A stretch of 64,000 nt of DNA from a virus. Lineage: Duplodnaviria > Heunggongvirae > Uroviricota > Caudoviricetes. The stretch is taken from IMG/VR virus record IMGVR_UViG_3300042914_003231, positions 1-64,000 of that record; one strand, given 5' to 3'. Under the pieces are notes generated by a model, which worked only from the letters and a program-made list of their open reading frames with translations, had not been told where the DNA came from and searched no databases. The position numbers and the translations under genes are program-made. Shown here in pieces: positions 3,422 to 18,041 of this stretch (within the stretch, counting starts at the first letter, position 1; each line of letters begins with the position of its first letter).

Positions 3422-4755
3422 TAGAATGGTAATTCTGCAAAATCTGTTACTGGAGCCTTGTCTCCTAATGCACTTCTATAATCCAGTAAGTGCTGGGTGA
3501 TCATATCTCTCAATTCCTGTGGTGGATTGTGACCTTCTCTTCCATTACGGAAGCCTTGAAGTTGGTGCATGCGTAAGCTCTTACCTACTTCCAGAGTATA
3601 CCGGATATCCTTGTATACCATAGAGAATATACCACAGTCTCCATTGTTTATTCTGCTTGCATATGTTGCTACACAATGTTCTTGTTCAATACTTTCCTGA
3701 AGCAATCGCTTCTTGCTATCAACCTCTTCTACAGGTATAGCGAAGTCCTTGAACAGACCTTTGTAATTTTTGTGCATTTTCACATGCTTCACACCCTTTA
3801 AAATTCTTTCCCTGCTAAGCTTGCTGTGTTCATCTCGCATTCTCTTGTCTGAGGTGATCTTTAAGGAGAGCTTTTTGTCCAGCTCATAGTGGTCATTCAA
3901 CCAGTCTTCTACTAACCATGACAATTCATCCTTACCAAAGCACATCTCAGAGATGAGACAACCCAGACTATACTTACTTTTAGATCCTCCTGTAAGACCG
4001 TCTAAAAAAGATATGCGAGTCTCACGAGTCTCTTCAGCTTGTTTCTTTTCTTTTTCCAGGATAAACTGACAAACTCTGTTCATCTCTCCTGGATTCTGAA
4101 GTACTTTGCAAAGAACATCTAAACCCTTTATGCTTAACTTTTCAATAAGCAGTTTAGGTATCTTTACATTGTACATCTTCTCAATGACTTCAGCCTCATT
4201 TTTAGTGTTCATAAAGTTTCTGGTAAGAACTTTATCTAATACTGGCTGGTAGTCAATGTTAAGAACTGTTTTCAAGATCTGAGGACCATATGTATGAGGA
4301 ATGCGACCACCCTTCATTATTCTCGGGCCTCTGTATCTTCTGCTGGCTATGAACACATACAATTGTTTACTGTAACAAAAGATAGGATGGTTTTTCTTAA
4401 AAGGATAGAATCGGTTCTTTTTGTAAGCATAAGCATATCCATGCTCAAACTCGGCAATACTGATGCGATCTTTTTCTTTGTTGTAGAGTATAGAAAGAAC
4501 TGTTTTAACAGGCCTAGACCTATATCCATTGACTGCTTTCATGTATATCTCTGAGTCTGGTTCATGTTTCCAACCATGCTCTTTGAAATAGTTCTTACAG
4601 TACTCAATTGCTTTTAAGTTATCAGGAGAGGTCATGTCAAAGTAATAGGAGATGAATTGCTCATTCTCTATTACCTTAACCTCCCTTTCATCAGACTGTG
4701 GACGGTATAGATCCTTTACAGTCTCTATTATCCGGTTGAATATTTCTCTTTTCAT
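3421..4755 (-). CDS. hypothetical protein, possibly PcfJ-like
   Basis: 444 aa; the C-terminal region with EQEHCVATY...GDCGIF is reminiscent of the PcfJ-like family (from memory, unverified); TTGAGTTGG leader upstream. Confidence 0.5.
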   Translation of the reverse strand: MKREIFNRIIETVKDLYRPQSDEREVKVIENEQFISYYFDMTSPDNLKAIEYCKNYFKEHGWKHEPDSEIYMKAVNGYRSRPVKTVLSILYNKEKDRISIAEFEHGYAYAYKKNRFYPFKKNHPIFCYSKQLYVFIASRRYRGPRIMKGGRIPHTYGPQILKTVLNIDYQPVLDKVLTRNFMNTKNEAEVIEKMYNVKIPKLLIEKLSIKGLDVLCKVLQNPGEMNRVCQFILEKEKKQAEETRETRISFLDGLTGGSKSKYSLGCLISEMCFGKDELSWLVEDWLNDHYELDKKLSLKITSDKRMRDEHSKLSRERILKGVKHVKMHKNYKGLFKDFAIPVEEVDSKKRLLQESIEQEHCVATYASRINNGDCGIFSMVYKDIRYTLEVGKSLRMHQLQGFRNGREGHNPPQELRDMITQHLLDYRSALGDKAPVTDFAELPF

Positions 4756-4784
4756 GTGGGTTGGTTTTTGAGTTGGTTAATTTT

Positions 4785-5084
4785 TTATTCATTTACCCAT
4801 AACTCAACAGTCATGGTAGACATACTGATAAGTTTTACTACAAGATTCTTCTTGTGTTTGGTCAACAAGTAGTTGTAAAGGTCAAAGTATGGTTGTTTAA
4901 GATCATGTGCACCAAAGCCACTGCTCTGTGATAGTTTCTCCTCATAATGCTCTCTTTCAAACTTGAAAAGGAATCTTTGCACTTTACTGCCTTTATAATT
5001 TTCTTGAGCCTGCTTTTTCAAGCTGGCCAGAGTAGGAGCAGAAGCCTTTGCTTCTGCCCTTTTCTTGGTTGTTTTTTTTGCCAT
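4785..5084 (-). CDS. hypothetical protein with basic N-terminus
   Basis: 99 aa, starts MAKKTTKKRAEAK. Confidence 0.45.
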   Translation of the reverse strand: MAKKTTKKRAEAKASAPTLASLKKQAQENYKGSKVQRFLFKFEREHYEEKLSQSSGFGAHDLKQPYFDLYNYLLTKHKKNLVVKLISMSTMTVELWVNE

Positions 5085-5486
5085 TTATTTATTTGCTAAT
5101 GGTTTATTTGTTAGAGGAGTCAGACTATAGCCATTTTTTGTTAGCTTTAGTACAGCATCATATTCCTTATAGAAGTCTACATCTATAGTAAATGAACCGG
5201 ATTGTGTGACATCAAGCATAAGAAACTTAACATTCTGGTTCTTATCTTGGAACCTTATTAAGTACTTTGCACCTAGATCACAAGCTATGGAATAATACTT
5301 CCTAGCCTTTGTACGGTATTCACTTACAAATGTACCTTCATGATTCATCTTGTAAACAGTGAAGTTTACATTTTTCTGATGGAGAAACTCTCCTTCAAGA
5401 ATAAGATGATACGGATCTTTTGTTTTTCCTTGTACTGATATGGTACATAACAGTACCACAATTAGTGAGTTGATTAACTTTTTCAT
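5085..5486 (-). CDS. secreted protein (N-terminal signal peptide)
   Basis: MKKLINSLIVVLLCTISVQG signal-like N-terminus; TTGAGTTGAT leader upstream. Confidence 0.5.
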   Translation of the reverse strand: MKKLINSLIVVLLCTISVQGKTKDPYHLILEGEFLHQKNVNFTVYKMNHEGTFVSEYRTKARKYYSIACDLGAKYLIRFQDKNQNVKFLMLDVTQSGSFTIDVDFYKEYDAVLKLTKNGYSLTPLTNKPLANK

Positions 5487-5530
5487 TTTGAGTTGATATT
5501 AGATTGTTGCACCAACTGCCCGGTGCCGGC

Positions 5531-6514
5531 TTATTTCATGTTGAACATTGCTGAAGTATTCCCACCCAACATGGTGGTAGGATACTTACCATCCCAGTTA
5601 GAAGCTCTGATGTAATCGATATACTGTTGGCTTAACTGTGCTTGCTTAAGCTTCATAGCCTTAGATTCTGCATCTGCTTCTACTAACATGGCTTGTGCTC
5701 TACCTGAAGCTGTAATAACGGCTTTGGCTGAATCACCTCTAGCTAGGGCAATCTTGGTTTTGGCTTGTGCATCTGCAACAATAGCCTTTTGTATTTCCCC
5801 TTGAGCTAGCTGTACAGCCTTAGTCTTTTCTTCGATCGCGTTTCTTAATGCTTCTGGTGGAACAATATTAGTTCTAAGCTGAGATATGACAAACCATTTA
5901 CTAGTCCTCTTATTACATTCTGTAACAATCTCTGCTTCAAACTGCTCTCTCTTATTAAAGATGTCATCTACAGACCATCTATTTGCCACATCATTTACTG
6001 ATCCCACAATAGCTGTCATTAACCATCCTTGTTCTATATCCTTCACTCCGAGTCTTAGAGCTTCAAACATATCTCCGACTGCATCTGCTTTTAAGGAATA
6101 GTTGAAGGTTGGTTTAATAACTGCTGAGAATCCTCCCTTTGTTATGACACCCTGATCACCATATTCAATATGTTGCTGGTAAGTAGGAAATTCATACAGT
6201 TTTTCTACCCATGTATTATAAGCTACCCAACCGGTTTTATACTGGTAGTCACTGACCCCGCGTTCATCACCTGATAGTTTAACTTTAATACCTACATGAC
6301 CAGCATCTACCCTCTCAAGGGTGTAAGGTTGAAATATGGCAACAAGCATACCTATAATGAGGATCAATAAAGGCTTAATTAGCCATGCCGGATTAGTTTT
6401 TTCAACCAAGTCATTGTACCGATCCTTAGTTTTGATTTTTGCATTTTCGCGGGTGCTAAATAGCATACCGATTACAAATAGGAGCACTGCTCCAAAAATT
6501 ATCCATGAAATCAT
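5531..6514 (-). CDS. SPFH / band-7 (stomatin-prohibitin-HflK/C-like) membrane protein
   Basis: N-terminal TM helix, then an Ala/Glu/Gln-rich coiled-coil tail (AQGEIQKAIVADAQAKTKIALARGDSAKAVITASGRAQAMLVEADAESKA) typical of the SPFH family. Confidence 0.6.
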   Translation of the reverse strand: MISWIIFGAVLLFVIGMLFSTRENAKIKTKDRYNDLVEKTNPAWLIKPLLILIIGMLVAIFQPYTLERVDAGHVGIKVKLSGDERGVSDYQYKTGWVAYNTWVEKLYEFPTYQQHIEYGDQGVITKGGFSAVIKPTFNYSLKADAVGDMFEALRLGVKDIEQGWLMTAIVGSVNDVANRWSVDDIFNKREQFEAEIVTECNKRTSKWFVISQLRTNIVPPEALRNAIEEKTKAVQLAQGEIQKAIVADAQAKTKIALARGDSAKAVITASGRAQAMLVEADAESKAMKLKQAQLSQQYIDYIRASNWDGKYPTTMLGGNTSAMFNMK

Positions 6515-6729
6515 TTTTCTTCTTCTTTTTTAGGGTTATTAATGTTTAAAATTTTCTGTAGCAATCTTACTATATACCATACATAGGCTACAACCATGAT
6601 GATATAAATTACAGTAGCCATTGAAAATAGTGGTATTGGGAAAAGAGGCCTTGAGATAAGCTCAAAGTAACTATCACTTGCTCCTATTACTACCATAGTA
6701 ACAAACAGGAATATGATCAGATTCTTCAT
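6511..6729 (-). CDS. small membrane protein, possibly a truncated NfeD-like partner of the SPFH protein
   Basis: 72 aa, two hydrophobic helices; 4-nt overlap with and directly upstream of the SPFH gene in the same orientation. Confidence 0.4.
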   Translation of the reverse strand: MKNLIIFLFVTMVVIGASDSYFELISRPLFPIPLFSMATVIYIIMVVAYVWYIVRLLQKILNINNPKKEEEK

Positions 6730-7112
6730 TCTTTAGGTCCTCCCATTCCACCACCTCCTAGTATTCTTACTATTGGGTGGTTCATTTGAGATCTCATGTC
6801 AGAAATCACATACATTACATAAGCTAACTCATTTGCGTGCTTGCAGAATGTAGATGCTTCTACCATTGCTGCGGTCAGTTTATCAGTTGCTATGAATGCT
6901 TTTCTTGCATAAGACTCAAGTTCGATAAGCCTTTCTTCAGTGATACCTAGAGCCTCAAATATTTTCTCTGAGTCAGGATTGATACATTTAACATGAAGAT
7001 GTTCGGCCTTATCTACTGTACTTACATCCATCAATGTGATAGATACTTTTGTTCTTTTTACAGGAGCTTTTTTCTTTGCCGGAGCTTTTTTCTTTGTAGG
7101 TGTTTTTGCCAT
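6726..7112 (-). CDS. hypothetical protein with Lys/Ala-rich histone-like N-terminus
   Basis: starts MAKTPTKKKAPAKKKAPVKRTK; 4-nt overlap with the downstream gene. Confidence 0.5.
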   Translation of the reverse strand: MAKTPTKKKAPAKKKAPVKRTKVSITLMDVSTVDKAEHLHVKCINPDSEKIFEALGITEERLIELESYARKAFIATDKLTAAMVEASTFCKHANELAYVMYVISDMRSQMNHPIVRILGGGGMGGPKE

Positions 7113-7128
7113 ACTAATGGATTGTTTA

Positions 7129-7160
7129 AATGTTTAATGTTTAAATGTTTAAATAATAAA
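7129..7160. repeat. tandem repeat (tgtttaaa)x4 just upstream of a leftward gene start
   Basis: tgtttaaatgtttaatgtttaaatgtttaaat is visible directly. Confidence 0.8.
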
Positions 7161-7727
7161 GTCACCCAGTAAAAGAACTGATATAGACTATGGTACTGTT
7201 AAAATTAAGGTCAAAGACCTTCCCTTGTTATAAAGGCAAAGGTGAAAACCAAGTCTTGTTTATACTATCACAAGGGCCAAGCCTCTACTCTCATAGGGCA
7301 AACAAAGGTCCTCTTAATGTGATAGAGTGATCCAATTATCTCCTTTCGGAGTAACCTGTTCACTGGTTGATACTTTTTATGAAAGCTCAAAAACAATAGG
7401 GGGTTTCACAAGGGAAGCGGTTGATGGGCACACCAGGTACCCGTTTAATTTAACATGATCCAAATTCATGTCTCCATTAGCAGTGGAGTGCTATTTTTCA
7501 GATAGCGAATAATAGTTTATATGTATAGTTCTTTTACCAAGCATAAAGATCTGCAGATATCAGCTTCTGCTTCTTCTACAGATCACCTTTAGGGGAGCTC
7601 TCCCAGCGTCACCTTCCTCACAGGACCGTATGCTTAACACTTAAGTTGGTAGGACTGGTAACAGGAGAGCATAATAAAATGTGGGAGGGGCCGGGTCTTC
7701 GAAGCCCCTTTATCCCACTAGAGTGTA
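7161..7727. other. large non-coding island (about 570 nt), GC-richer than the flanks; candidate structured RNA or regulatory region
   Basis: no ORF of 60 aa or more in any frame; several hairpins, e.g. ggggccgggtcttcgaagcccc at about 7693-7714. Confidence 0.35.
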
Positions 7728-8648
7728 TTAGACCTCAGGTTCTAGTCCTTTTAAGAACTGATCAATAGTTGCCTGAAATCTAGGATCGATCTGAATACGC
7801 ATTGCTGCAGTAGTCTTGATTTGCTCCTGGCGGTCAGCTTCGAATGACTCCTTCTCTACCTTAATGGCATCAGAGTATTCATCCATAGCTTTATTCCACT
7901 CATTACGCAACTTCTCATTGCGATTGTTCACCTCAGCTTGCTTTACAGCATTCTCTTTAGCAATGCGAGCATTCTCCTCAGTCACAAGGTTCTTAACCTT
8001 GGCTTTGTAGTAGTTCACGCGTTGCTCATACTTGCGGTGAAGAGTGGCTAAAGTCTCATGATGAGCTAATAACTCTTCAGATGTGTGATGTACTTCTACC
8101 TTAATAGGTGTGCGCTCTCCATCCTTGATAGTTATCCAATCAAGAGCTTTTACCTTAGGTAATTCTTTTCTCAAGCCATCCAATATGGAGTCCTTGTGAA
8201 TGAACTGACCGATGTGAGCAGCATATGCCTCTGCTTCTATATACTCTGCATATTCTGCAGAAGTAAGTTTGTCCCAGCCCCAGTCCTCACCAATAGCTTT
8301 TGCAGCAACAAACTTTTCATAGCTTGGTTGCTCTGGAGCATCTTTTGGTGCTACATAAGACTTCATTCTCAGTTCAATAAGAAGATGGTCTTTAGCCTTA
8401 ATGTTTACCATTAAGAAAGCCTGGGTTGCATGAAGTTTTGCTTTCTCTTGCAACAAGTCAGCAACATCCTTTGGCATAGGTTTACCTACCTCTTGAGTAT
8501 AGGTATCTCCACCAATTTTGAATGTCTTAGTAGCATTATTGATACCACTTAACTTGTTGTTGATCTCTAATGCGCGCTGGTAGCACAAGTTAGAAATACT
8601 TTGAGCCTGAGAAAGGCTTAATCCGGTTTTAGACAAATGATGTCTCAT
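7728..8648 (-). CDS. hypothetical coiled-coil protein
   Basis: 306-aa ORF rich in K/E/A heptads. Confidence 0.55.
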   Translation of the reverse strand: MRHHLSKTGLSLSQAQSISNLCYQRALEINNKLSGINNATKTFKIGGDTYTQEVGKPMPKDVADLLQEKAKLHATQAFLMVNIKAKDHLLIELRMKSYVAPKDAPEQPSYEKFVAAKAIGEDWGWDKLTSAEYAEYIEAEAYAAHIGQFIHKDSILDGLRKELPKVKALDWITIKDGERTPIKVEVHHTSEELLAHHETLATLHRKYEQRVNYYKAKVKNLVTEENARIAKENAVKQAEVNNRNEKLRNEWNKAMDEYSDAIKVEKESFEADRQEQIKTTAAMRIQIDPRFQATIDQFLKGLEPEV

Positions 8649-8680
8649 GATCTTTATGGTTTCCTATACACCATTAGGTT

Positions 8681-9718
8681 TTAAGTTGTTTTATTTTCTT
8701 TCCATTGAATTCCTGGACAGTAGTTCTCTTTAACAGTCATAATATACTGCCAAAAGAATTTGAAGAACTGACCTAAGCCAGATCCTATAACTATAAAGAA
8801 TTTAGCAAATGCTACAGCTGCTTTACCAAAGGTTCTTCCAAACCATGAGTTGCATATACATACAGCACATTTAGTAAATATTCTAGCAAACATCCATACT
8901 ATAAGCACTATAATTCCTACAAATACTAAAATAATTCCAGCATTTCTTAAGAATCTCCAAAGCTTATCTGGATAAAAGTGGGCCCAAGCATAGTCAATAA
9001 CTAACCATACACCGTATGCTATAATTATTAAGAGAGCTATTGCAATAATATAACCTATCCATTTAGTATACTTTACTATATTAGTAAACATCTGTTGTGT
9101 TCTTTTCTTAGCAACTTCTCTAGCTTCCCATTCTTGTTTTTCTTTAAGAGCTAACTCTTCTTGTAGTTTTTTTCTATCTTCAGCAGCTTTTAACCAGCTA
9201 TCTTTTATTTTTTGTCTCATCTCTTTAAGCTTAAGTTCCCAATCAGGATTATCTTGCTTCCAAAGATCAAACTTCTTTCTCATAGCTTTTTTCTTATACT
9301 CTTTTGTACCATAGATAGGATCTTTACCATCTTTATCTAAGAAGTATTCATCTCTCATGAAATGATAATATTCCCAGTCAGCTTCTGAATTACTTCCACG
9401 AGTCCATTCATGATTATAGTTAACTACCCATGCTTTCATAATATCATCCTCTCCCATAATTCTAGCAGCTTGTCTAACTAAAGGTTCACAGATCTTCTGA
9501 TCAAACCAGTCTGTAGACTTCTCTATAAACCAGACAAATCCCTTAACTATTAATAGAATAAGCTTTACTAATGGTACAATAGGTATGATAAAAGTTACTA
9601 GTATACAAAAATTTGTAAGCCAGAAGTAAGGACAGAAGTTGTTGAATCTAGGCGGGTTATTAAAGACAAACCTCTGTAGTCTTCTATGCCATCCATTAGA
9701 ATTTAATGTTATTTCCAT
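8681..9718 (-). CDS. membrane protein (N- and C-terminal TM segments, central coiled coil)
   Basis: 345 aa; long hydrophobic stretches at both ends. Confidence 0.55.
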   Translation of the reverse strand: MEITLNSNGWHRRLQRFVFNNPPRFNNFCPYFWLTNFCILVTFIIPIVPLVKLILLIVKGFVWFIEKSTDWFDQKICEPLVRQAARIMGEDDIMKAWVVNYNHEWTRGSNSEADWEYYHFMRDEYFLDKDGKDPIYGTKEYKKKAMRKKFDLWKQDNPDWELKLKEMRQKIKDSWLKAAEDRKKLQEELALKEKQEWEAREVAKKRTQQMFTNIVKYTKWIGYIIAIALLIIIAYGVWLVIDYAWAHFYPDKLWRFLRNAGIILVFVGIIVLIVWMFARIFTKCAVCICNSWFGRTFGKAAVAFAKFFIVIGSGLGQFFKFFWQYIMTVKENYCPGIQWKENKTT

Positions 9719-9730
9719 ATTTGTTTTTAA

Positions 9731-9759
9731 TTTTAAAGTTTAAATATTTTAAAGTTTAA
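9731..9759. repeat. tandem repeat (ttttaaagtttaa)x2 upstream of a leftward gene start
   Basis: ttttaaagtttaaatattttaaagtttaa. Confidence 0.7.
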
Positions 9760-9948
9760 CTATCAGCAGTCCTTGTACTGTATCTGCTGTTTTATAAGGA
9801 AATAGTTAATAGGTATTGACTGTCTAGTAAGGGCTCCATATAAAGCACTCTCGAGAACTCTGTTACGTATGCACCAAGAGACAGTCAAAAAGATGGGCTA
9901 GGAGATTGCTCTCCTATTGGCTGGTATGAGACAGCTCAATGCCCAATG

Positions 9949-10404
9949 TTATTTGTGTAAATAGTATCTCCATTCACTGGATCCTCCAGCTTCAGAGAAT
10001 ACAAACTTTGTACTGGTCAGTTGAATAATAGGAAAAGTGGAAGTGCTAAGTTCAAAATACCCGGCATTAGGTGCTTTCCAAGAATACTTTTTTAAGTTAC
10101 ACCATATATGTCCATCATCTACATTGTAAAAACCGGTTGAGTTGTTTATATAATCAGTATCATAAAACTGCATCCTACAAGAGGTTGTATTACTTGATAC
10201 AGATACACTCTGCCTTATGTTATTGTCATACCTTACAACAGAGTCCAATAACCATAAACCTAATAAGCTTTGTTCTTGAGCTGTTAGATTGTTATTACTG
10301 TTGTTCTGATTGGTAGAAGGTGATGGATTAGTAGTCGGTGCTGGTGAGTTCTTATTGCAGGCCATCATTACAATCAGGCTTAGCAAGCAAAATAGTTTTT
10401 TCAT
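9949..10404 (-). CDS. lipoprotein
   Basis: MKKLFCLLSLIVMMAC lipobox-like signal followed by an N/S/T/P-rich linker. Confidence 0.55.
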   Translation of the reverse strand: MKKLFCLLSLIVMMACNKNSPAPTTNPSPSTNQNNSNNNLTAQEQSLLGLWLLDSVVRYDNNIRQSVSVSSNTTSCRMQFYDTDYINNSTGFYNVDDGHIWCNLKKYSWKAPNAGYFELSTSTFPIIQLTSTKFVFSEAGGSSEWRYYLHK

Positions 10405-10424
10405 TTGAGTTGTTGTTTAATTGG

Positions 10425-10643
10425 TTAATAAATTACTCCACATTTCTTACACTTAGTATGTCCGTGATTGGATTCACCCCATTCATGTACACATGTAGAA
10501 GGAGCTGGTGTATCTTGTTTAAGTTCATAGTTCTCATTTATTAGACTGATAATTACATCAGCTGAGGCTTCTGGAGTTCTGTCTCCATTCTCCACGGCTC
10601 TTAATAGCTTGCGAAGATAGTCTCTTTGAATATGTGTTGCCAT
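10425..10643 (-). CDS. small protein with C-terminal zinc-ribbon-like Cys/His cluster
   Basis: CVHEWGESNHGHTKCKKCGVIY at the C-terminus; AACTCAA leader. Confidence 0.4.
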   Translation of the reverse strand: MATHIQRDYLRKLLRAVENGDRTPEASADVIISLINENYELKQDTPAPSTCVHEWGESNHGHTKCKKCGVIY

Positions 10644-11021
10644 AGTTTGAGTTGATTTTAGAGTTGATTAATAAAATGAGAGGGCTTTCTTTCGGTACCC
10701 TCTCTGACTTTACCTGCTTGCTAAGACTTTACTGTTGGCTCTCACATCCCAAAGCTATAAGGGAAAGGCACATGTTGTGTGTTTTCATACCTGGTCTTAA
10801 CCTGTTGATAGTACAACAGTGGTAGGCCCCAGTACACGCCTACTCTAATTCCGGTTATTGTATCAGCCGGTAGATTGTTAATAGATAGGTTCCCCATAAA
10901 GGGTTGGAAGTCAAAACGCTACACTTCCCGCCAGGGTGCGACCCTGTGTTTTCATCGAATGCCATGCTAAAGACCTAGAGGCGACCACCGTTACTAGATC
11001 TAGAGTTGATGCTAGAGTATA
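10644..11021. other. non-coding island (about 380 nt), GC-richer, several hairpins
   Basis: no ORF; hairpins gagggc...gccctc and cagggtgcgaccctg followed by a T-run. Confidence 0.3.
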
Positions 11022-11576
11022 TTAGAGTTCAAGTAATTTGTTGATATACAATACCATCTCCTTGTAAGTGATCAAGTGATTACCCAAGTATCTTTTGATC
11101 TTAGGCCACTCAGCCTTATACTTCTCATACATAGAGGAATTCTCTAGTAATGAGTACTTTATGTTTGCGATGATATCGCAGAGCTTAACAAACACAGCTA
11201 GTTCATTCTCGACTAGTGTCCGGTAGAACTCTTCATTCTTTCTTTCGGCCCTGTTCCTACCCCTCATCTCAGTACATAAGAAAATGATCTCGGCTAATTC
11301 TTCAGCCTCCTGTTGTGCCATTCCCTTCTTCCTACCTATCTCTATGATATCATTGTATGTAACCCGAGCATCTTCGATCATATCATGACCATAGCAAGCT
11401 GCCTTGACTAAGAACAGTTTATCTCCCGGTATTAGATGACTGAACTTTTTAGCTTGTGCATGCACATAGTGCAAGTGTTGGGAATAAGGTAGAACCTTAG
11501 CATACTTCTGGTTACATACCTCATCATGCCGGCTCATACACCAGTCCCTAAAGTATTCAAATGTTATAATATCCAT
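11022..11576 (-). CDS. HD-domain metal-dependent phosphohydrolase
   Basis: H...GHDMIED motif (HD then ED) as in SpoT/RelA-type HD hydrolases. Confidence 0.5.
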   Translation of the reverse strand: MDIITFEYFRDWCMSRHDEVCNQKYAKVLPYSQHLHYVHAQAKKFSHLIPGDKLFLVKAACYGHDMIEDARVTYNDIIEIGRKKGMAQQEAEELAEIIFLCTEMRGRNRAERKNEEFYRTLVENELAVFVKLCDIIANIKYSLLENSSMYEKYKAEWPKIKRYLGNHLITYKEMVLYINKLLEL

Positions 11577-11642
11577 GACTAATGGTTTTAGTAGTTAAAC
11601 AATGGGATGATATGGTATAGGCTCTATGAGAGCTCGTGTTAG

Positions 11643-11858
11643 TTAGTAATTATCAGCCATAGAAGCTAGTATAAGTATTGCACCAATGACTATTAGTATG
11701 ATGGCCAGTGGGAAACATAAGTTCCACCAGCTTAATACAGCTATGGTGACTAGCATAACTCTTGGTTTGATTTCGGTGGCGGTCTCTATATCATATAGAA
11801 TACCTGCTATTATACCTATAAGAGATAGAATAGCAATTGTTAAAATGATCTTGTCCAT
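11643..11858 (-). CDS. small membrane protein
   Basis: 71 aa, two hydrophobic helices. Confidence 0.4.
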   Translation of the reverse strand: MDKIILTIAILSLIGIIAGILYDIETATEIKPRVMLVTIAVLSWWNLCFPLAIILIVIGAILILASMADNY

Positions 11859-12173
11859 GGTTTATAGGTTTAAATGGTTATACAATAAGAGCTGAGTCAG
11901 CCTCGGTTAATATCTTTAAAGCTGTGGTGATCCTTTCCTACCTATATAAGGATATAGTAATAGGTATAGATATAGAGATAGTAGTATATAGGGTAATATC
12001 TTTAAGCAAGTAAACCTATTAGGTTTATTAGCTATATGGTGCACGCTCGCCTAAAGGGTGATTGAGGGCTTATTGATCATGGTATCAAAGTGTTGTAGGG
12101 AGTTCACCCCACCTCATGCACACTCTTTTCTTACACATTATCAACTAGTTAGCTGGTTTTTTGTTTGCTTTAG

Positions 12174-12356
12174 ACCTGATGAGATCTATTCAACCGGTGT
12201 TATTCTCCCTATATATAGAGATAAGATAACCACCAAGTACTAAACCTGACACAACTATGCGAAGAAATATTCAAAGTGTTTGTCCTATATATAGGGAAAC
12301 ATCTACCAACTATACCATAGACCTGATAAGACTATGCGAAGACTATTTAAAAACAC
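12174..12356. repeat. three degenerate direct repeats of about 50-55 bp (iteron-like)
   Basis: each copy begins acctga and carries actatgcgaaga and/or cctatatatag(g); an AT-rich tata tract lies upstream at 11935-12010. Confidence 0.55.
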
Positions 12357-12369
12357 AGTAGATACCAAG

Positions 12370-12416
12370 AAAAGAAAAAGAAAAGGAACATAGGGATATT
12401 ACTCCCTATATTCCTC
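12370..12416 (-). terminator. rho-independent terminator for the 12434-12883 gene
   Basis: hairpin agggatattactccct, then a T-rich stretch in the minus-strand reading direction. Confidence 0.45.
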
Positions 12417-12433
12417 TGTCCCCTCTTTATCTC

Positions 12434-12883
12434 CTACATTTTGTCAACACCGCCTTTAACAGCCGCATTCTTTGCTTGCAACTTGGCAATGTTAGCTGAG
12501 CGATTGCTAGCCAATGTGCCTGCAAAACGCTTTAGTTCAGCAAGCTTATCTTGTGCATAAGCTGCTTTGGTAGCCTCATCAGCACCGCTGATTAAGTCGG
12601 CCAATTGCTTCTCTACTGAGTTATCAGTAAACCAGATGATTTCTCCTGAAGCACTTACTGTACGCTCCAATGTTGCCGAAGTACCATACTTAACAGCGGC
12701 TTTTGCTGTGAAGTGGATTAATGGGTTGCCCTCATCGTCCTGACTGTCAATACCTTTAGCCAATTGGTCTTGGCGGTATTGTTCTGCACCCTCGCCAGTT
12801 ACCTTGTAACTAACCATTGGTGTTCCTGTTTCCTTAGCTTTGTAAGGATTTGGGTTGCTGATTGTGATTGTTTTCTTTTCCAT
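12434..12883 (-). CDS. hypothetical protein
   Basis: 149-aa ORF; CCAACTCAAA leader directly before the ATG. Confidence 0.55.
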   Translation of the reverse strand: MEKKTITISNPNPYKAKETGTPMVSYKVTGEGAEQYRQDQLAKGIDSQDDEGNPLIHFTAKAAVKYGTSATLERTVSASGEIIWFTDNSVEKQLADLISGADEATKAAYAQDKLAELKRFAGTLASNRSANIAKLQAKNAAVKGGVDKM

Positions 12884-12930
12884 TTTGAGTTGGTTTTTAA
12901 GTTATGACATTATTGTCAAGGTAGTTAATG

Positions 12931-12962
12931 GGATACAAGAGAAAGAAGATACAAGAGAAAGA
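12931..12962. repeat. 16-bp tandem repeat gatacaagagaaagaa x2
   Basis: overlaps the first copy of the atgggata motif. Confidence 0.7.
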
Positions 12963-13375
12963 ATACACACAGAAGAATGCACACAGGTAGCCATTGCTAT
13001 CCCATGTGCATGTCCATGACAACAAAGAACGATCACCTCAAGTCGAGGCAAATAGACCCATTGATCTTAACCACTGATTTCTTCAGTGATCTGGCCAGTG
13101 TGGTGGCTGAGTCTAATGATGGATATTGTGCTATATATTGTAGCACATGTTTGCTACTAGCCTTATCCCACACTTGTTTAAATACCTGATACATAAGCCT
13201 TTATTTAAGTTAGTTAATGTGATACTACAGCCATAACTATGGCCGAGTCAATAACAGCAAGCCAAAGCATTGCTATTATTTTTTTGATTACTGTCCAGTC
13301 CTTTGCATCAGATAATGCAACACCTAGACCTAATGATAGTGTTATCATAGCTTTAAGTTTTTGAATAACAGTGGA

Positions 13376-13579
13376 TTATTCTCCACTGTTATTTGAGTTA
13401 TCTTTATCCCAAGCATTGTGTCCTGCAATGCTGTTAGAGATGGTGCCGTCTATATTTCTATAGAATGACTGTTTACCTGTGTATCCTTCTTTAGGAGTGA
13501 ATGCTGGTCTTTGCTTTACAGGAGACTTGGTCTCTACTGATGGCACTTGCATGAAGCCGATTACTGGTACATTTCTCAT
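13376..13579 (-). CDS. hypothetical small protein
   Basis: 67-aa ORF, last of the leftward block. Confidence 0.3.
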   Translation of the reverse strand: MRNVPVIGFMQVPSVETKSPVKQRPAFTPKEGYTGKQSFYRNIDGTISNSIAGHNAWDKDNSNNSGE

Positions 13580-13740
13580 ATGATGTTGGTTTGTGTTAAA
13601 ATAATGATCAAGTGCTACAGGGTGTACATTCCCTGCTCACTATTCTAGGACTCCCTCTCGTAGGTGTATTAAGTAGTAGCCACGACTGGCCTTACTCCCC
13701 CGAATAGTCTCTCAGGATTTCTCCTGTCTTGAGCACTTGA

Positions 13741-13957
13741 TCAATCAAGTTGATGGGATAAAGAAGAAAGAATAGAGTAAGGTGATGAGTGGATCTCTCC
13801 ACTCGCGGCCTTATATAGTTTGTCGTTGCCCTACACATGCAACTATTAAGTATGCAGGGATCGTCCTTGGTTGGCTACATGCTCAAGGATGCATGGATGA
13901 CATGATACCATCTCATCAATCAAGTTCATGGGATAAAAAAAGACAGAACTTTTTCTC
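13741..13957. repeat. two copies of the 25-nt motif tcaatcaagtt(g/c)atgggataaa in the divergent region
   Basis: 13741-13765 and 13925-13949 match at 24 of 25 positions; a related copy gttaatgggatacaaga lies at 12924. Confidence 0.7.
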
Positions 13958-14012
13958 CAAGGAAAAAAGTTTCTTACCAGGCTGAATTAGGAAAATGTTT
14001 TTTTCAGACCCT

Positions 14013-14058
14013 GGGGGTAGGGGGTACTATGAAACACGGGGGGAGGTTGTTGGGGAGG
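14013..14058 (+). other. G-run tract with G-quadruplex potential
   Basis: GGGGG-ta-GGGGG-13 nt-GGGGGG-a-GG-ttgtt-GGGG-a-GG inside an otherwise AT-rich genome. Confidence 0.4.
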
Positions 14059-14140
14059 ACCCAATCCACAAACACTATTATGTAAAATACCCACCCCGGG
14101 ATATTATATTCTATTGATCAGGTATTGCTTATCTTAGAAT

Positions 14141-14902
14141 TTGAGTTATATTTGTCCTATGAAAAAAAGTACAATATGGGTTATTGTGGGACTGATAGGA
14201 GTCTTGCTTATTACCCTGGCTTGGATTATGATTTATTCTAAGCCTAAACCTATTCCGGATATAAAAAATGGAGTAACCTATCATAAGATTTATAATCATA
14301 CTAAGGATTCGGTATTGGTATGGGTTACTTTGGGGGCAACCCCGGGGTGTCTGCAGGATGTGACTAAGATACCTTTTGTTACTTCTGGATCAGGGTTAGT
14401 AGGATCCTTCTACCTAGCAGCTGGTGATTCTACTATTTGGTATGCACCGGACTCAGTTGGATTCAATGGAGTATTTAGCTTTAATTATCAGCCAGATAAC
14501 TGCCCAGCTCCTACGTATCCTAACGGTATTAACCAGTATGAGTTTATAGTGAACAATGCATTCCAAGCAGGACAACCTCAAGAGAGTATCAATATCTCAT
14601 GTGTTCATGGGGTGAACTGTGTTATTCGTGTAGATATAATTACTAGTAATCCATTTAATGCCGGCTCTAAAGTTCCTGTTGTGGAAAGCTTTGCTAATAC
14701 ACTTGATCGGAATCAACTTGGTATCCCTGGTGTATACCCGTATGCGTGCACACATTGTACAGACTACATAGGAGCCCCCGGCTGTATCTCTACTCCTCAG
14801 CCTGTTTCTAAAGAACAAATCTGCCAGGTACAAAGACCAGCTAACCAATCAGGAGGAATGATAAAAGTTATATATTTAGGAAATGAAGAACCTGCAAAAT
14901 AA
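14141..14902 (+). CDS. membrane-anchored Cys-containing protein
   Basis: N-terminal TM helix; first gene of the rightward block. Confidence 0.55.
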   Translation: MSYICPMKKSTIWVIVGLIGVLLITLAWIMIYSKPKPIPDIKNGVTYHKIYNHTKDSVLVWVTLGATPGCLQDVTKIPFVTSGSGLVGSFYLAAGDSTIWYAPDSVGFNGVFSFNYQPDNCPAPTYPNGINQYEFIVNNAFQAGQPQESINISCVHGVNCVIRVDIITSNPFNAGSKVPVVESFANTLDRNQLGIPGVYPYACTHCTDYIGAPGCISTPQPVSKEQICQVQRPANQSGGMIKVIYLGNEEPAK

Positions 14903-14903
14903 A

Positions 14904-14936
14904 TTTGCATAATTAAAAAAACTATATTATATTTGT
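14904..14936 (+). promoter_or_regulatory. candidate Bacteroidota-type promoter (TTTG -33 box, 21-nt spacer, TATATTTG -7 box)
   Basis: matches the TTTG-N19-21-TAnnTTTG consensus; located upstream of the tRNA array. Confidence 0.3.
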
Positions 14937-15047
14937 AACATGAAACTGTTTTTCTTATCGTTTAGTTGTTTATGGTATCTCTCACAAGGAGGCAGCCCGG
15001 GCATTTCATGATAGGTTTTTCATAGTTAAACATGATTAATTGACAAA

Positions 15048-15078: not shown

Positions 15079-15151
15079 TGGACTCATAGCTCAGTAGGTA
15101 GAGCGCAGGACTGAAAATCCTGCCGCACTGGTTCGATTCCAGTTGAGTCCA
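15079..15151 (+). tRNA. tRNA-Phe (GAA)
   Basis: acceptor ggactca/tgagtcc, anticodon loop cuGAAaa, T-loop ggttcgattcc. Confidence 0.8.
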
Positions 15152-15156
15152 CACAA

Positions 15157-15239
15157 GCCGACACTGTAGAGTGGGAGATCTACACCAGACTGTAAATCTG
15201 GAGTCTTAGACTTTGGGAGTTCGAATCTCTCTGGCGGCA
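15157..15239 (+). tRNA. tRNA-Tyr (GTA), long variable arm
   Basis: anticodon stem ccaga/tctgg with loop ctGTAaa; one acceptor mismatch. Confidence 0.7.
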
Positions 15240-15244
15240 CAAAA

Positions 15245-15331
15245 GGAAGGTTGGCAGAGCCTGGCCGATTGCACCAGTCTTGAAAACTGGAGGTCCCTTG
15301 GATCCGTGAGTTCGAATCTCACACCTTCCTC
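15245..15331 (+). tRNA. tRNA-Ser (TGA), long variable arm
   Basis: acceptor ggaaggt/accttcc; loop ctTGAaa. Confidence 0.75.
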
Positions 15332-15333
15332 AA

Positions 15334-15371
15334 CATGCATAGAAAAATGCACTTTTCTATACATGTTTTTT
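15334..15371 (+). terminator. rho-independent terminator inside the tRNA array
   Basis: 13-bp stem catgcatagaaaa/ttttctatacatg followed by TTTTTT. Confidence 0.55.
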
Positions 15372-15392
15372 GAAAGTGCATAAAAACTATAC

Positions 15393-15440
15393 ATCTCTAG
15401 CTCAACTGGCGGAGCAGCGGTCTCCAAAACCATAAAGCAG
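15393..15440 (+). pseudogene. truncated tRNA-Trp-like fragment (D-arm plus anticodon arm only)
   Basis: tagctcaactggcggagc D-arm and ggtctccaaaacc shared with the intact tRNA-Trp downstream; no T-arm or acceptor 3' strand. Confidence 0.45.
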
Positions 15441-15469
15441 TTTGGATACTGAAGTAAAAACATGTATAT

Positions 15470-15817
15470 TTGTACATGCCTTCAAAAAATAAAGAAATAC
15501 TAAAAAAGCATAGAGATGCTTGGTATAAAAAGAATAAAAAAAAACAGATTACTAACCAGCTTGAAAAAAGACAGGAATTAAAGAAATGGTTTCAGGAATA
15601 TAAGAGATCATTATCTTGTAAAGAGTGTGGATTTAGCTTTGAATTATTTCCAGAATGTTGTGATTTCCATCACAGAGATGGAGATACAAAGAAAGATGTA
15701 GTAAGCAGATTGCTACCAATGGGAATAAAAGCACTAAAGAAAGAGATTGAAAAATGTGATCCTCTTTGTGCTAATTGTCATAGAAAGCTCCATGCAAAAT
15801 TAGAATATACAGGTTAG
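15470..15817 (+). CDS. HNH homing endonuclease
   Basis: CDFHHRDGD...N...LCANCHRKLH HNH motif. Confidence 0.8.
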   Translation: MYMPSKNKEILKKHRDAWYKKNKKKQITNQLEKRQELKKWFQEYKRSLSCKECGFSFELFPECCDFHHRDGDTKKDVVSRLLPMGIKALKKEIEKCDPLCANCHRKLHAKLEYTG

Positions 15818-15880
15818 CTTATTGGAAGCACCAGGTCTCCAAAACCTCGGATGGAAGGAGTTCGATTCTCTTAACCTGTG
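15809..15880 (+). tRNA. tRNA-Trp (CCA)
   Basis: acceptor acaggtt/aacctgt, loop cuCCAaa, T-loop ttcgatt; overlaps the HNH stop codon. Confidence 0.6.
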
Positions 15881-15885
15881 CACAA

Positions 15886-15957
15886 GGTACCGTGGGTGAG
15901 GGGTTTAGCCTCAGGTCTGCAAAACCTGCTACGTCTGTTCGAATCAGACCGGTACCT
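15886..15957 (+). tRNA. tRNA-Cys (GCA)
   Basis: acceptor ggtaccg/cggtacc, anticodon stem caggt/acctg, loop ctGCAaa. Confidence 0.75.
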
Positions 15958-15958
15958 C

Positions 15959-16174
15959 ATGAAAGAGATAGATGAAGAGTTCAACTTACTTCAGTTGTAC
16001 ATCTATGATTGCATCAACCGGATGTGTTTGAATGCATACATAGATAAGACTAAGTGTTCTCATCACCCTTTGTATACTTTTGAAGAATACAAAACGGCAA
16101 TATGGGATCCTTGGACTGGAGAGACTGTAGCAAGTAGAACAAGATGGGCTTTAAATATTAAGCCTTTATTTTAG
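15959..16174 (+). CDS. hypothetical small protein embedded in the tRNA array
   Basis: 71 aa starting at the first ATG after tRNA-Cys; its stop codon abuts tRNA-Ser. Confidence 0.4.
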   Translation: MKEIDEEFNLLQLYIYDCINRMCLNAYIDKTKCSHHPLYTFEEYKTAIWDPWTGETVASRTRWALNIKPLF

Positions 16175-16257
16175 AGAAGTGGCTGAGTGGCTTAAGGCAC
16201 CGCACTGCTAACGCGGAGGATGTAACAGTTCCACCGGTTCGAATCCGGTCTTCTCTG
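16173..16257 (+). tRNA. tRNA-Ser (GCT), long variable arm
   Basis: acceptor agagaag/cttctct; loop ctGCTaa. Confidence 0.7.
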
Positions 16258-16262
16258 CAAAT

Positions 16263-16343
16263 GCCCATATGGTGGAATGGTAGACGCGCTGGTCTTAGGA
16301 ACCAGTACCGTAAGGTATGTAGGTTCGAGTCCTACTATGGGTA
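16263..16343 (+). tRNA. tRNA-Leu (TAG)
   Basis: anticodon stem ctggt/accag, loop ctTAGga, long variable arm. Confidence 0.75.
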
Positions 16344-16348
16344 CATAT

Positions 16349-16431
16349 ACTCCTGTGGTGTAATTGGTAGCCGCGCTAGGCTTAAGACTCAGTGGACTTA
16401 GTCCGTGCCGGTTCGAGTCCGGCCAGGAGTA
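16349..16431 (+). tRNA. tRNA-Leu (TAA)
   Basis: acceptor actcctg/caggagt; loop ctTAAga; long variable arm. Confidence 0.7.
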
Positions 16432-16682
16432 CTTTGCTCACCTGATTAATAAAGTGACCAAAAATTATTACACTGTCTACCAATCAGTTAGACCTTCTGA
16501 AGAAAATATTTTTGGTAGACTCAAACAAACCTATTATATTTGTCTTGCAAATGAAACGCATACAACATATCCAGATGGCCAATACAGGCAGAAATACGGT
16601 GGAGATTAAAGATCCGACCGTGTCCATGGGTGTTGCATGTAGTTTTAGATAAGACATTTTTAGTTAGCTAAACCGCATTAAA

Positions 16683-16709
16683 CCCCTGGACAAGTTCTAG
16701 GGGTTTTTT
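16683..16709 (+). terminator. rho-independent terminator
   Basis: stem cccctgg/ctagggg followed by TTTTTT. Confidence 0.55.
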
Positions 16710-16718
16710 GTTTTACCC

Positions 16719-16791
16719 CGGGATGTAGATCAGTTGGTAGATTGCGTGCTTTGGGAGCATGAGGTCGCAGGTTCGAGCCCTGTCATCCCGA
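16719..16791 (+). tRNA. tRNA-Pro (TGG)
   Basis: acceptor cgggatg/catcccg; loop ttTGGga. Confidence 0.75.
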
Positions 16792-16847
16792 CTAGCAGAA
16801 GTGGTACTCCAGTGCCCGTACTGAAAACCAAACAAAACTGGAGACAT

Positions 16848-16920
16848 GGGGTTCAAGCACAAGCGGACGTGCATTAGCTTTGCAAGCTAGAGGATCTCGG
16901 TTCGAGGCCGAGGAGCTCCA
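16848..16920 (+). tRNA. tRNA-Ala (TGC) with G3:U70
   Basis: acceptor ggggttc/gagctcc carrying the G3:U70 wobble identity pair; D-arm gcac-aagcggac-gtgc; loop ttTGCaa; T-arm ctcgg-ttcgagg-ccgag. Confidence 0.65.
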
Positions 16921-16921
16921 C

Positions 16922-17083
16922 ATGAATGAAGAACTATATAATTGGCTGGAGAAGATGTTTATGTTCTCCAATATCCCTAAGTACAGGAAGTACTTTAAGG
17001 AATGGGTGGACAACATAACTGAAGATCAGATCACCGGTTTTCAGAGAATGATGGGAGCCAACTATAAGATTAAGCAGGAATAG
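16922..17083 (+). CDS. hypothetical small protein embedded in the tRNA array
   Basis: 53 aa, from the first ATG after tRNA-Ala; its stop codon overlaps the start of tRNA-Gly. Confidence 0.35.
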   Translation: MNEELYNWLEKMFMFSNIPKYRKYFKEWVDNITEDQITGFQRMMGANYKIKQE

Positions 17084-17148
17084 CTCATCCTTGGTAGAGC
17101 TCCAGTCTTCCAAACTGGAGGTGGCGAGTTCGAGCCTCGCTTCCTGCT
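17074..17148 (+). tRNA. tRNA-Gly (TCC)
   Basis: acceptor gcaggaa/ttcctgc; loop ctTCCaa. Confidence 0.75.
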
Positions 17149-17331
17149 CACAACTGCAGTGCCCATGTACAGTGGGGGTACAATCACTGCAGGTAGAAGA
17201 GTGCTAAGAAATCCGGTGTTGGGTTAGCTCTGGACACTAAGGTAAGGAGTGGGTAAGGACCACAGTCCCCGTCTAACAGGGACAAAGTTTTGCAAAAGCC
17301 TTCCCTGGGATGGAGCACTCTTCATGATATT

Positions 17332-17407
17332 GGTCTGTTAGGGGAGTCCGGCCGTCCCTACCTCACTGTCTATGAGGGGATCACGGGTTCGAATCCCGTA
17401 CAGACCG
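17332..17407 (+). tRNA. tRNA-Asp (GTC)
   Basis: acceptor ggtctgt/acagacc; anticodon stem cctca/tgagg, loop ctGTCta. Confidence 0.7.
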
Positions 17408-17518
17408 CTGGGCGGTAGTCTAATGAGCAGGGTTAGTAGCGTGCTGACTAACTAGTCTTAGGACGATCATCTTATGGGATGATAGATATCAGTAACCATT
17501 CTGATCTGCCCCACCAAT

Positions 17519-17590
17519 TGCCCCTTAGCTCAGCGGTAGAGCAAAACCCTGTTAAGGTTGAGGTCCTAGGTTCAATCCCTAGAGGGGCAG
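17519..17590 (+). tRNA. tRNA-Asn (GTT)
   Basis: acceptor tgcccct/aggggca; loop ctGTTaa. Confidence 0.7.
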
Positions 17591-17595
17591 CAAAT

Positions 17596-17957: not shown

Positions 17958-17963
17958 TTTAAA

Positions 17964-18035: not shown

Positions 18036-18041
18036 TGAATA

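Follow-up and report, generated by a model that had tools for sequence, protein, structure and literature searches.

Why does a phage genome that is elsewhere packed tightly with genes leave several hundred nucleotides without a gene, time and again, among its small leftward genes? The question is raised by the interval from 7.1 to 14.1 kb of a 64,000-nucleotide (nt) stretch of viral DNA (positions 1 to 64,000 of IMG/VR record IMGVR_UViG_3300042914_003231, referred to here as the window). In our reading, which we consider probable as a whole, these gaps are functional spacers of mixed content that hold terminators and promoter-like elements, and the first of them, island 1, encodes a stable structured RNA that is coupled to g306, the gene of a 306-amino acid (aa) protein. 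A greedy gene map, taken together with the list of open reading frames (ORFs), places six gaps between credible leftward genes in this interval, and we refer to them as follows.

7113-7727, 615 nt: island 1
9719-9948, 230 nt: sixth gap, without an island number
10644-11021, 378 nt: island 2
11859-12433, 575 nt: island 3
12884-13375, 492 nt: island 4
13580-14140, 561 nt: island 5

Elsewhere in the window, the tRNA array aside, almost all gaps are shorter than 150 nt and the largest is 278 nt, which bears out the dense packing described in an earlier reading of the letters alone (the sequence-only reading). That reading had listed five ORF-free islands in the interval. The large gaps are real, but they are six in number (9719-9948 was missing from the list), the start given for island 3 was wrong, and island 4 turned out to be partly coding.

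About 60 related loci (designated by L numbers) were gathered from Logan, JGI, ENA, and IMG/VR through homologues of three window proteins of 149, 128, and 306 aa. The closest distinct relative, L003, encodes proteins that are 72-85% identical to those of the window, and its third codon positions, which are 54-63% identical, served as the yardstick for weakly constrained sites. Measured in this way, the segment of island 1 that runs from 7591 to 7121 is conserved above the neutral expectation, being 74-78% identical to L003 and L036, and no reading frame is conserved within it: tblastx hits to the block occur in all six frames, none of them preferred. A profile search recovered the element at full length from L025 and in a shorter form from L001. 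In IMG/VR, an exact 25-nt pattern taken from the P-hairpin region had no hit, and a looser, degenerate pattern taken from the 3' domain picked up 19 further loci, on contigs of 16-434 kb. The alignment (A8) comprises fourteen distinct sequences, each 300-440 nt long, and L059 and L061 were held out, giving 16 distinct phage lineages in all.

RNAalifold resolved A8 into 53 consensus pairs, 39 of which show compensatory changes, and 92.5% of the cells are paired. Double changes occur in 131 cells, compared with 16-36 when the pairing partners were slid by 1-3 columns; likewise, the covariation score is 0.53, compared with at most 0.16 in the slid controls, and none of 500 shuffles reached the observed values. 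Further, G·U pairs exceed A·C pairs by 91 to 16, and it is therefore the gene-sense strand that folds. The RNA and its helices are arranged as follows, all on the minus strand.

7592 to 7154: conserved structured RNA of ~440 nt, a new family recognized by covariation
7586-7589 with 7158-7161: helix P1
7555-7577: hairpin P2, with the conserved loop AAGCAnAAGCYGA
7527-7541 with 7165-7179: long-range helix P3, 15 bp with arms ~370 nt apart; 14 of the 15 pairs covary
7408-7417 with 7219-7228: helix P4, 10 bp; 8 of the 10 pairs covary
7349-7364 with 7264-7287: inner three-helix domain

Helices P1 and P3 join the ends of the RNA, and P4 closes the inner domain, which holds the most conserved U-rich single strands. 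These invariant strands (GACUURGUUUUUGnCYUUGCCUUUG, AAGGUCUUUGAC, and UUGACAUAGUCUAU) are candidate sites for protein binding or tertiary contacts. Between P3 and P4, sequences of the window type carry lineage-specific hairpins, one of which varies as CTCC/GGAG, CCTA/TAGG, and CCGG/CCGG. The sequence-only reading had put forward all of its islands as prime candidates for large structured RNAs and had proposed covariation analysis with homologues as a check. This analysis gave strong covariation for the island 1 RNA, and the idea is right for island 1 alone and not for the families that had been named; the other four listed islands are better read in other ways, as described below, island 2 showing no convincing structure.

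Each locus has one copy of the RNA, and the motif was absent from 185,579 bacterial and archaeal genomes. The two held-out loci, fetched through g306 homologues alone, both have the RNA 5-10 nt after the stop codon. Helices P1, P2, and P4 are fully kept in both, with new compensatory variants, and 13 of the 15 pairs of P3 are kept in L059; in L061, P3 seems out of register in the fixed-length alignment, and its arms are complementary when read directly. The RNA version in L061 is also longer (~500 nt, 3938-4436) and is followed by a further ORF-free 500 nt (gap to 4967); the family may have larger members or there may be a second downstream element. Separately, a 521-nt stretch around the RNA is identical in L041, L042, L043, L053, and L054 (IMG/VR contigs of 28-373 kb), and the same is true of L045, L049, and L055; such stretches represent either the same phage resampled or partly chimeric assemblies.

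The constant feature of the RNA neighborhood is the gene upstream of it.

7728..8648, minus strand: g306, encoding a 306-aa protein, directly upstream of the structured RNA
7668..7714, minus strand: terminator-like hairpin after g306 (GTGGGATAAAGGGGC...GCCCCTCCCAC, then ATTTTATTAT), read from the sequence

In every locus examined for this pairing (19 found via the motif, 4 via other genes, and 2 via g306), a g306 homologue with 50-74% aa identity is located directly 5' of the RNA, and in most of them the RNA begins 5-20 nt past the g306 stop codon. The gene downstream of the RNA varies by lineage (128 aa, SRAP of 141 aa, 123 aa, 526 aa, 660 aa, and others). In L039, L045, and L050, the RNA is followed by an intrinsic terminator, and in L041 it is followed by a tRNA-like sequence, as read by eye. 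Because g306 upstream is constant and the downstream gene or terminator is not, the RNA belongs with g306 and is not the leader of the next gene. Two relatives, L045 and L048, have a tRNA array immediately 5' of g306 and on its strand, and in L003 a DUF7873 gene and a tRNA with anticodon TCA are inserted between g306 and the RNA. The g306 family itself comprises 2,354 homologous clusters, all of them unnamed and without Pfam domains. A tblastn search of g306 against GenBank phage records (INPHARED) gave no match, its profile found nothing below E = 0.3 among PDB sequences, and the structure predicted for database homologues is confident, mostly helical, and uninformative.

The junction between g306/RNA and the next gene is also an insertion hot spot, where an SRAP-domain gene, a DUF7873 gene (full or fragment), or a tRNA is found (L003:10243-12728, L036:3947-4372, L035:115-540, and L032:553-828). 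In relatives, the junction region adjoins genes with NADAR, cREC_REC, and Lockin domains, which suggests an anti-defense or accessory gene neighborhood. Just upstream of the RNA copy in L003, ARAGORN calls a 94-nt tRNA with anticodon TCA ('tRNA-SeC') on the plus strand at 12161-12254, and at ~11990-12100 of the same locus a T-arm and 3' acceptor sequence stand, in odd order, ahead of a 5' acceptor and D-arm. The TCA tRNA might suppress UGA codons, a hint of stop-codon reassignment in L003.

The element is thus a conserved, strand-specific, closed multi-helix fold in fixed synteny with g306. Because the chain seen in relatives runs from tRNA array to g306 to RNA and on to a terminator or tRNA, the RNA may well be made as the 3' part of the g306 transcript. 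Its closed fold and joined ends would then stabilize it, and it would work with or for the g306 protein, as its partner or scaffold in a ribonucleoprotein or else through control of the g306 mRNA from the 3' end, and would not act as a leader for the gene that follows. A bolder extension, which we hold only tentatively and think doubtful, is that the RNA and g306 form a dedicated phage ribonucleoprotein, or that the RNA self-assembles in the manner of GOLLD and ROOL, in either case as an early RNA-based machine, so far undescribed, of a very widespread clade of uncultured crAss-like and large freshwater phages; if this were true, the targets of the machine could be host translation, tRNA metabolism, or host defense.

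Several points weigh against the picture of terminator- and promoter-bearing spacers with an RNA gene coupled to g306. In the window, a terminator-like hairpin and ~85 nt lie between g306 and the RNA, and therefore co-transcription needs read-through or an unseen promoter; a similar hairpin is found in L003 (5719-5759), and it is missing in L036, L025, and L001, in which 9-20 nt separate the stop codon from the start of the RNA. The predicted model of g306 has no recognizable RNA-binding fold. The structure was derived from the same alignment that supplies most of the covariation, and the held-out sequences number two. Moreover, the most invariant stretches of the RNA (three TTGAC motifs and TAGTCTAT) resemble -35/-10 promoter elements and could be conserved for a role at the DNA level, and we infer the transcription, ends, and stability of the RNA from comparison of sequences. 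With regard to the spacers, a sigma-70 scan (TTGACA-N16-18-TATAAT) found 24 sites where 27.6 ± 5.2 were expected, that is, chance, and the promoter-like modules of islands 3-5 match neither the sigma-70 consensus nor what we take to be the Bacteroidota primary-sigma (-7/-33) consensus.

Among the alternatives, the one that survives best, and that we nevertheless think unlikely, is that the island 1 block acts in cis on the 128-aa gene as its long 5' leader, riboswitch-like or otherwise exerting translational control. The block ends ~40 nt before the 128-aa start codon, conservation among close relatives continues unbroken into the (TTTAAAC)n leader of that gene, and the 3' arm of P3 lies near this leader, so that folding could affect ribosome access. 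However, the 128-aa gene gives way to the SRAP gene or to genes of 123, 526, or 660 aa in other lineages, a terminator or a tRNA-like sequence intervenes in L039, L045, L050, and L041, and the neighbor that stays constant is g306, on the other side.

Marginally less probable still is an explanation in which the islands are conserved for a DNA-level function, as a replication origin or as a promoter cluster for a host or virion RNA polymerase. The three invariant TTGAC motifs are compatible with this, one arrangement (TTGACA-N18-TAGTCT) resembling a -35/-10 pair, as are the iteron-like repeats ~77 nt apart, AT-rich palindromes, and GATATA-rich stretch of island 3 and the minimum of the cumulative GC skew at ~11.4-12.7 kb. 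What such an explanation does not account for is that helices with arms up to ~370 nt apart covary at nearly every position and that the 91:16 ratio of G·U to A·C pairs marks one strand as the folding one, which sites in duplex DNA do not explain. As for an origin, GC skew in phages tracks gene orientation, and no replication-initiator gene was recognized nearby in domain scans of the flanking genes (ten genes in 6.7-14.9 kb searched against Pfam, PHROGs, and NCBIfam, where an HD phosphohydrolase and a 'membrane protein' PHROG were the only matches). Since the invariant U-rich strands resemble -35/-10 elements, a promoter embedded in the RNA gene is possible, and this would be compatible with the RNA reading. 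The idea that the 3' part of island 1 is a mere sigma-70 promoter, which came from L001 alone, was demoted after the long-range covariation appeared. The sequence-only reading had offered 'origin or regulatory hubs' as its own alternative, and the regulatory half of this finds support in islands 3-5.

It is very improbable that the islands are decayed or miscalled protein genes, be they pseudogenes, genes with reassigned stop codons, or many small ORFs. Island 4 did hold two missed short genes, relatives carry SRAP and DUF7873 genes at the island 1 junction, and L003 has its TCA tRNA. Yet recoding TGA, TAG, or TAA singly leaves the gene-strand frames closed across the islands, and stop-codon recoding was rejected as a cause of the gaps; the 24 tRNAs of the window include no suppressor according to ARAGORN. 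In addition, tblastx with islands 1, 2, 3, and 5 gives hits in every frame and on both strands, the conservation of island 1 exceeds that of synonymous sites, and L036 has the conserved block alongside its inserted SRAP gene and not replaced by it.

The families suggested by the sequence-only reading (GOLLD, ROOL, HEARO, and group I/II introns) were looked for in the Rfam 15 scan that it had recommended, and none was found. At the gathering threshold, tRNAs were the only Rfam matches in the whole window; at E ≤ 10 with permissive filters, the region 6500-15000 gave three chance-level hits to unrelated families; and in six relatives, nothing appeared at the RNA positions at E ≤ 1. Neither ARAGORN nor Rfam found a tmRNA in the window, where tRNAs are confined to 15080-18648, and Pfam and PHROGs found no adjacent IscB, TnpB, or reverse transcriptase among the ten genes in 6.7-14.9 kb. 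The element also lies between different, complete genes in different lineages, which is not the position of an intron. These Rfam results therefore indicate that GOLLD, ROOL, HEARO, the introns, and tmRNA are not present. Overall, it is scarcely credible that the islands are known large RNA families (GOLLD, ROOL, HEARO/omega RNA, group I/II introns, or tmRNA), for which the context of a phage with a 24-tRNA array speaks and against which stand the negative Rfam scans of the window, of 6500-15000, and of six relatives, the negative ARAGORN search, and the lack of an adjacent IscB, TnpB, or reverse-transcriptase gene.

Turning to the phage itself, the gene map of the window has leftward genes from 164 to 13579 and a divergence point at 13580-14140 (island 5). 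To the right of it lie one rightward gene, then 24 tRNA genes (15080-18648; Rfam and ARAGORN), and after the tRNA array a dense rightward block that carries the terminase, portal, and major head protein, the latter two matching PHROGs families. The terminase has 129 matching records, nearly all from crAss-like phages, at ~24% identity (Bacteroides, Flavobacterium, and Cellulophaga phages), and a 1789-aa protein contains the Pfam crAss muzzle domain (crAss_MUZ, 95.3 bits against a cut-off of 27). Further, the start codons of the window are preceded by A/U-rich leaders without Shine-Dalgarno sites, and such leaders are consistent with a Bacteroidota host. The terminase, the muzzle domain, and these leaders lead us to the conclusion that the DNA comes from a distant crAss-like phage, as yet uncultured; the host is probably a member of the Bacteroidota, and we presume that the 7-14 kb stretch is the start of a leftward block of small early genes. 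Near and distant DNA searches with 7000-14200 against 50,697 GenBank phage records (INPHARED) gave no match. A contig identical to the window is present in a Logan assembly (L002).

By analogy, the nearest precedent for the island 1 RNA would be the early long non-coding RNAs (lncRNAs) of the crAss-like phage phi14:2, in which two long early intergenic regions give rise to abundant, persistent non-coding RNAs (Drobysheva et al., bioRxiv 10.1101/2020.03.07.982082). According to the passages of that preprint that bear on them, these lncRNAs are transcribed in gene direction, above most mRNAs, and from the earliest time point, and the same passages report no conserved structure (bioRxiv 10.1101/2020.03.07.982082). 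On this account, phi14:2 resembles the window phage in being crAss-like, in belonging with Bacteroidota hosts, and in having long ORF-free gaps among small early genes near the genome end; the two differ in that the phi14:2 lncRNAs are known by expression, whereas the island 1 RNA is known by structure and covariation. Homology between them was rejected, as an nhmmer search with the RNA profile against 1-12 kb of phi14:2 gave E = 0.12 on the wrong strand, and no g306 homologue was found in that region. The island 1 RNA adds comparative evidence that the phi14:2 lncRNAs may reflect a general, functional feature of the crAss-like group.

GOLLD and ROOL are large ornate RNAs that often occur in phages and prophages near tRNA genes and have been studied by cryo-electron microscopy (PMC12286853). 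Like them, the island 1 RNA is large, multi-helix, and phage-borne, has its ends joined by long-range helices, and in several relatives stands beside a tRNA array. It is smaller (300-500 nt, compared with ~550-800 nt for GOLLD and ROOL) and, unlike them, has a fixed upstream protein-gene partner and no Rfam match at the thresholds tried; as far as sampled, it is restricted to uncultured crAss-like or large freshwater phages. The RNA is new in that it is absent from Rfam 15 and from the 50,697 GenBank phage records searched. Strongly covarying large structured RNAs are seldom found, and the discovery of each new class has tended to bring new biochemistry with it. It is probably widespread, given more than 2,300 g306 clusters in metagenomes and the RNA at 25 of the 25 g306 loci examined, on contigs of 16 to 434 kb. 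Its fixed gene partner offers a direct experimental handle, of a kind that GOLLD, ROOL, and OLE went years without.

With island 1 accounted for, the remaining gaps differ from it and from one another. The sequence-only reading had described the islands as visibly GC-richer than their coding flanks and full of hairpins. The first statement is true of islands 2, 5, and 1, with GC contents of 0.44, 0.42, and 0.40 above the window mean of 0.367, and not of island 3 (0.36), island 4 (0.37), or the 9719-9948 gap (0.36); the flanking genes themselves range from 0.32 to 0.45. The second applies in part. Relative to dinucleotide shuffles, the folding z-scores are -4.9 for the island 1 RNA, -5.1 for an insert in island 5, and -3.6 for the 9719-9948 gap, compared with -0.5 to -2.9 for coding controls; island 2 has no significant overall fold (-0.6), and neither the 3' part of island 3 (-1.25) nor the distal part of island 5 (+0.7) is rich in structure.

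Most gaps share one plan, in which the intrinsic terminator of the upstream gene comes first and is followed by one to three strand-specific promoter-like modules and an A/U-rich leader without a Shine-Dalgarno site. Given this layout, each gene or gene pair would form its own transcription unit. A terminator scan found 15 terminator-like sites in the window, compared with 5.1 ± 2.5 expected, and among them are 12417 to 12382 and, beside the island 4 terminator, 13051 to 13033. Terminators of this kind, a GC-containing hairpin and T-run directly after a stop codon, have counterparts of different sequence in the same position in relatives. The plan can be followed from the divergence point leftward, beginning with island 5.

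13580..14140, minus strand: island 5, a divergent control region with the leftward genes on one side and the rightward gene and tRNA block on the other
13947 to 13916 and 13772 to 13741, minus strand: two tandem TATCCCAT promoter-like modules upstream of the 67-aa gene
13600-13745, minus strand: structured insert of ~140 nt in the 5' leader of the 67-aa gene
13990-14055, plus strand: G-rich block with four G-runs (GGGGGTAGGGGGT...GGGGGGAGG...GGGGAGG)

Three perfect copies of the TATCCCAT module occur in the window, each on the gene strand, and the module is conserved 5' of the 149-aa gene in ~25 loci. In an alignment with L003 and L026, both island 5 modules and the G/C-rich block are conserved, and a hairpin at ~13787-13804 that separates the modules occurs in the same place in each relative with a different sequence. 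The G-rich block, which lies between the divergent gene blocks and is also partly conserved in L025, could be a G-quadruplex or a protein-binding site. The insert, which is closed by an 11-bp helix (13606-13616 with 13732-13742; GATCAAGTGCT / AGCACTTGATC), is absent from L003 and L026 and has no second copy in any fetched locus; it looks like a mobile structured insert.

Further to the left, island 4 has a truly intergenic part of 149 nt (12884-13032), with the following elements.

13025 to 12975, minus strand: terminator hairpin, kept with compensating changes in relatives
12963 to 12916, minus strand: promoter-like module, two copies of TTCTTTCTCTTGTA and then TCCCATTAAC
12905-12918, minus strand: small hairpin TGACATTATTGTCA; an A-rich leader lies within the same 149 nt

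The module is very strongly conserved 5' of the 149-aa gene family, in ~25 loci, and the small hairpin shows covariation (TTGACA..TGTCAA in one form, TTGGCA..TGCCAA in the other). Perfect matches to the core motif TKTATCYCATNAAC are found three times in the window, at 12937, 13762, and 13937 and each time on the gene strand, and in 16 related loci the motif occurs in the sense orientation only, upstream of the 149-aa and 67-aa genes. The 149-aa gene (12434-12883, minus strand) has at least 54 homologous clusters, 45-87% identical and without a Pfam domain, and within this phage group it looks like a core early gene.

Island 3 begins where the 149-aa gene ends. The sequence-only reading had drawn the far boundary of this island at 11896 because of a plus-strand ORF (11686..11895), which is spurious because it overlaps the minus-strand 71-aa gene at 11643..11858, conserved in L004; that boundary was rejected in favor of 11859.

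12382..12417, minus strand: intrinsic terminator belonging to the 149-aa gene and opening island 3, a 15-bp stem and T-run
12160..12350, minus strand: three tandem promoter-like units (TCTTCnCATAnTTnTaT-CAGGTYTA), ~70-77 nt apart
11859..12159, minus strand: long leader or possible transcript 5' of the 71-aa gene, with one conserved hairpin

The terminator hairpin of the 149-aa gene is retained in L003 and L004 with a changed sequence. The CAGGT of the three units starts at 12325, 12248, and 12178, and the units alternate with the palindromes CTATATATAG (12285-12294 and 12209-12218). In 8-9 phages, two to three tandem copies of the CAGGTYTA unit lie 3' of the 149-aa homologue, always in the sense orientation, and the terminal TA of the unit begins a TAnnnT hexamer, often TATAAT. 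Position, orientation, and conservation all suggest that the units are tandem promoters, perhaps with operators. The leader region (11859..12159) is ~68% identical to L003 and L026 and contains a conserved block, GCACCATATAGCT, at ~12031-12043; a large structured RNA in this 3' part of the island was rejected, with an RNAalifold consensus of only -1.9 kcal/mol and the z-score of -1.25 given above. Since ORF-free stretches of 500-900 nt follow the 149-aa gene in most relatives, a transcript from the putative island 3 promoters may be non-coding. The minimum of the cumulative GC skew (~11.4-12.7 kb) is situated ~1.5-2.5 kb to the left of the gene-orientation switch (~14.1 kb) and overlaps island 3, with its 77-nt-spaced repeats, AT-rich palindromes, and GATATA run.

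Taken together, the TATCCCAT and CAGGTYTA modules are putative promoters and the hairpins putative active terminators, and they offer candidate motifs for early promoters and terminators in a phage lineage that has not been cultured. Virulent phages have tandem clusters of early promoters and terminator-bounded early units, such as T7 A1-A3 and the T5 early promoters. The window is similar in that co-oriented modules head the leftward block (two in island 5, one in island 4, and three in island 3) and upstream genes end in a hairpin and T-run, and it differs in that its spacers are far longer than a promoter and a terminator need.

Island 4 is not wholly non-coding, since two short minus-strand genes within it are conserved at the protein level.

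13214..13348, minus strand: 44-aa gene, hydrophobic product; 56% identical to L018 and 48% to L025 by tblastn
13033..13194, minus strand: 53-aa gene, 70% aa identity to a called 52-aa gene in L003

In both genes, conservation is lower at the third codon position than at the first two, the identities at positions 1/2/3 being 0.58/0.70/0.33 for the 44-aa gene and 0.79/0.83/0.52 for the 53-aa gene. The 44-aa product is probably a membrane peptide, and its gene is also called on the identical contig L002. The 53-aa product shows 38-62% identity in L006, L007, L009-L011, and L026, with ORF matches in seven loci besides L003. Gene callers thus miss short genes (44 and 53 aa) in such spacers.

Further elements were found in the two gaps between island 1 and island 3 and, next to the 128-aa gene, in island 1 itself.

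10670-10704, minus strand: terminator-like hairpin of island 2, shortly before the 72-aa gene, read from the sequence
9719-9948, minus strand: in order, a terminator hairpin, an ~85-nt element (9895 to 9801), a hairpin, and a (TTTAAA)n leader
7113..7153, minus strand: A/U-rich (TTTAAAC)n leader of the 128-aa gene, without a Shine-Dalgarno site and with a tandem period of 7-8

In island 2, a block of 120 nt (11021 to 10900) just after the HD-phosphohydrolase gene is conserved in L003, the one relative on which the comparison rests, with 84% identity over 125 nt to L003 4476-4597 and tblastx hits in all frames. The ~85-nt element of the 9719-9948 gap is closed by a 10-bp helix (TTGACTGTCT/AGACAGTCAA), and its core is 83.5% identical to L004 19612-19693, where the closing helix carries a compensatory double change (TG/CA to AC/GT). 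It sits 5' of a DUF7873 gene in L004, compared with the 345-aa gene in the window, and an exact pattern search of IMG/VR for it gave no hit. The element may be a second small structured RNA or a portable regulatory cassette. Finally, heptamers of the form TTTAAAC or TTTAAAG, in 3-4 copies, stand directly 5' of the start codons of the 128-aa gene (7122-7160) and the 345-aa gene (9721-9763). These leaders are 100% conserved in L003 and precede a different gene (SRAP) in L035 and L036, and the repeats may be a portable translation-initiation or regulatory leader.

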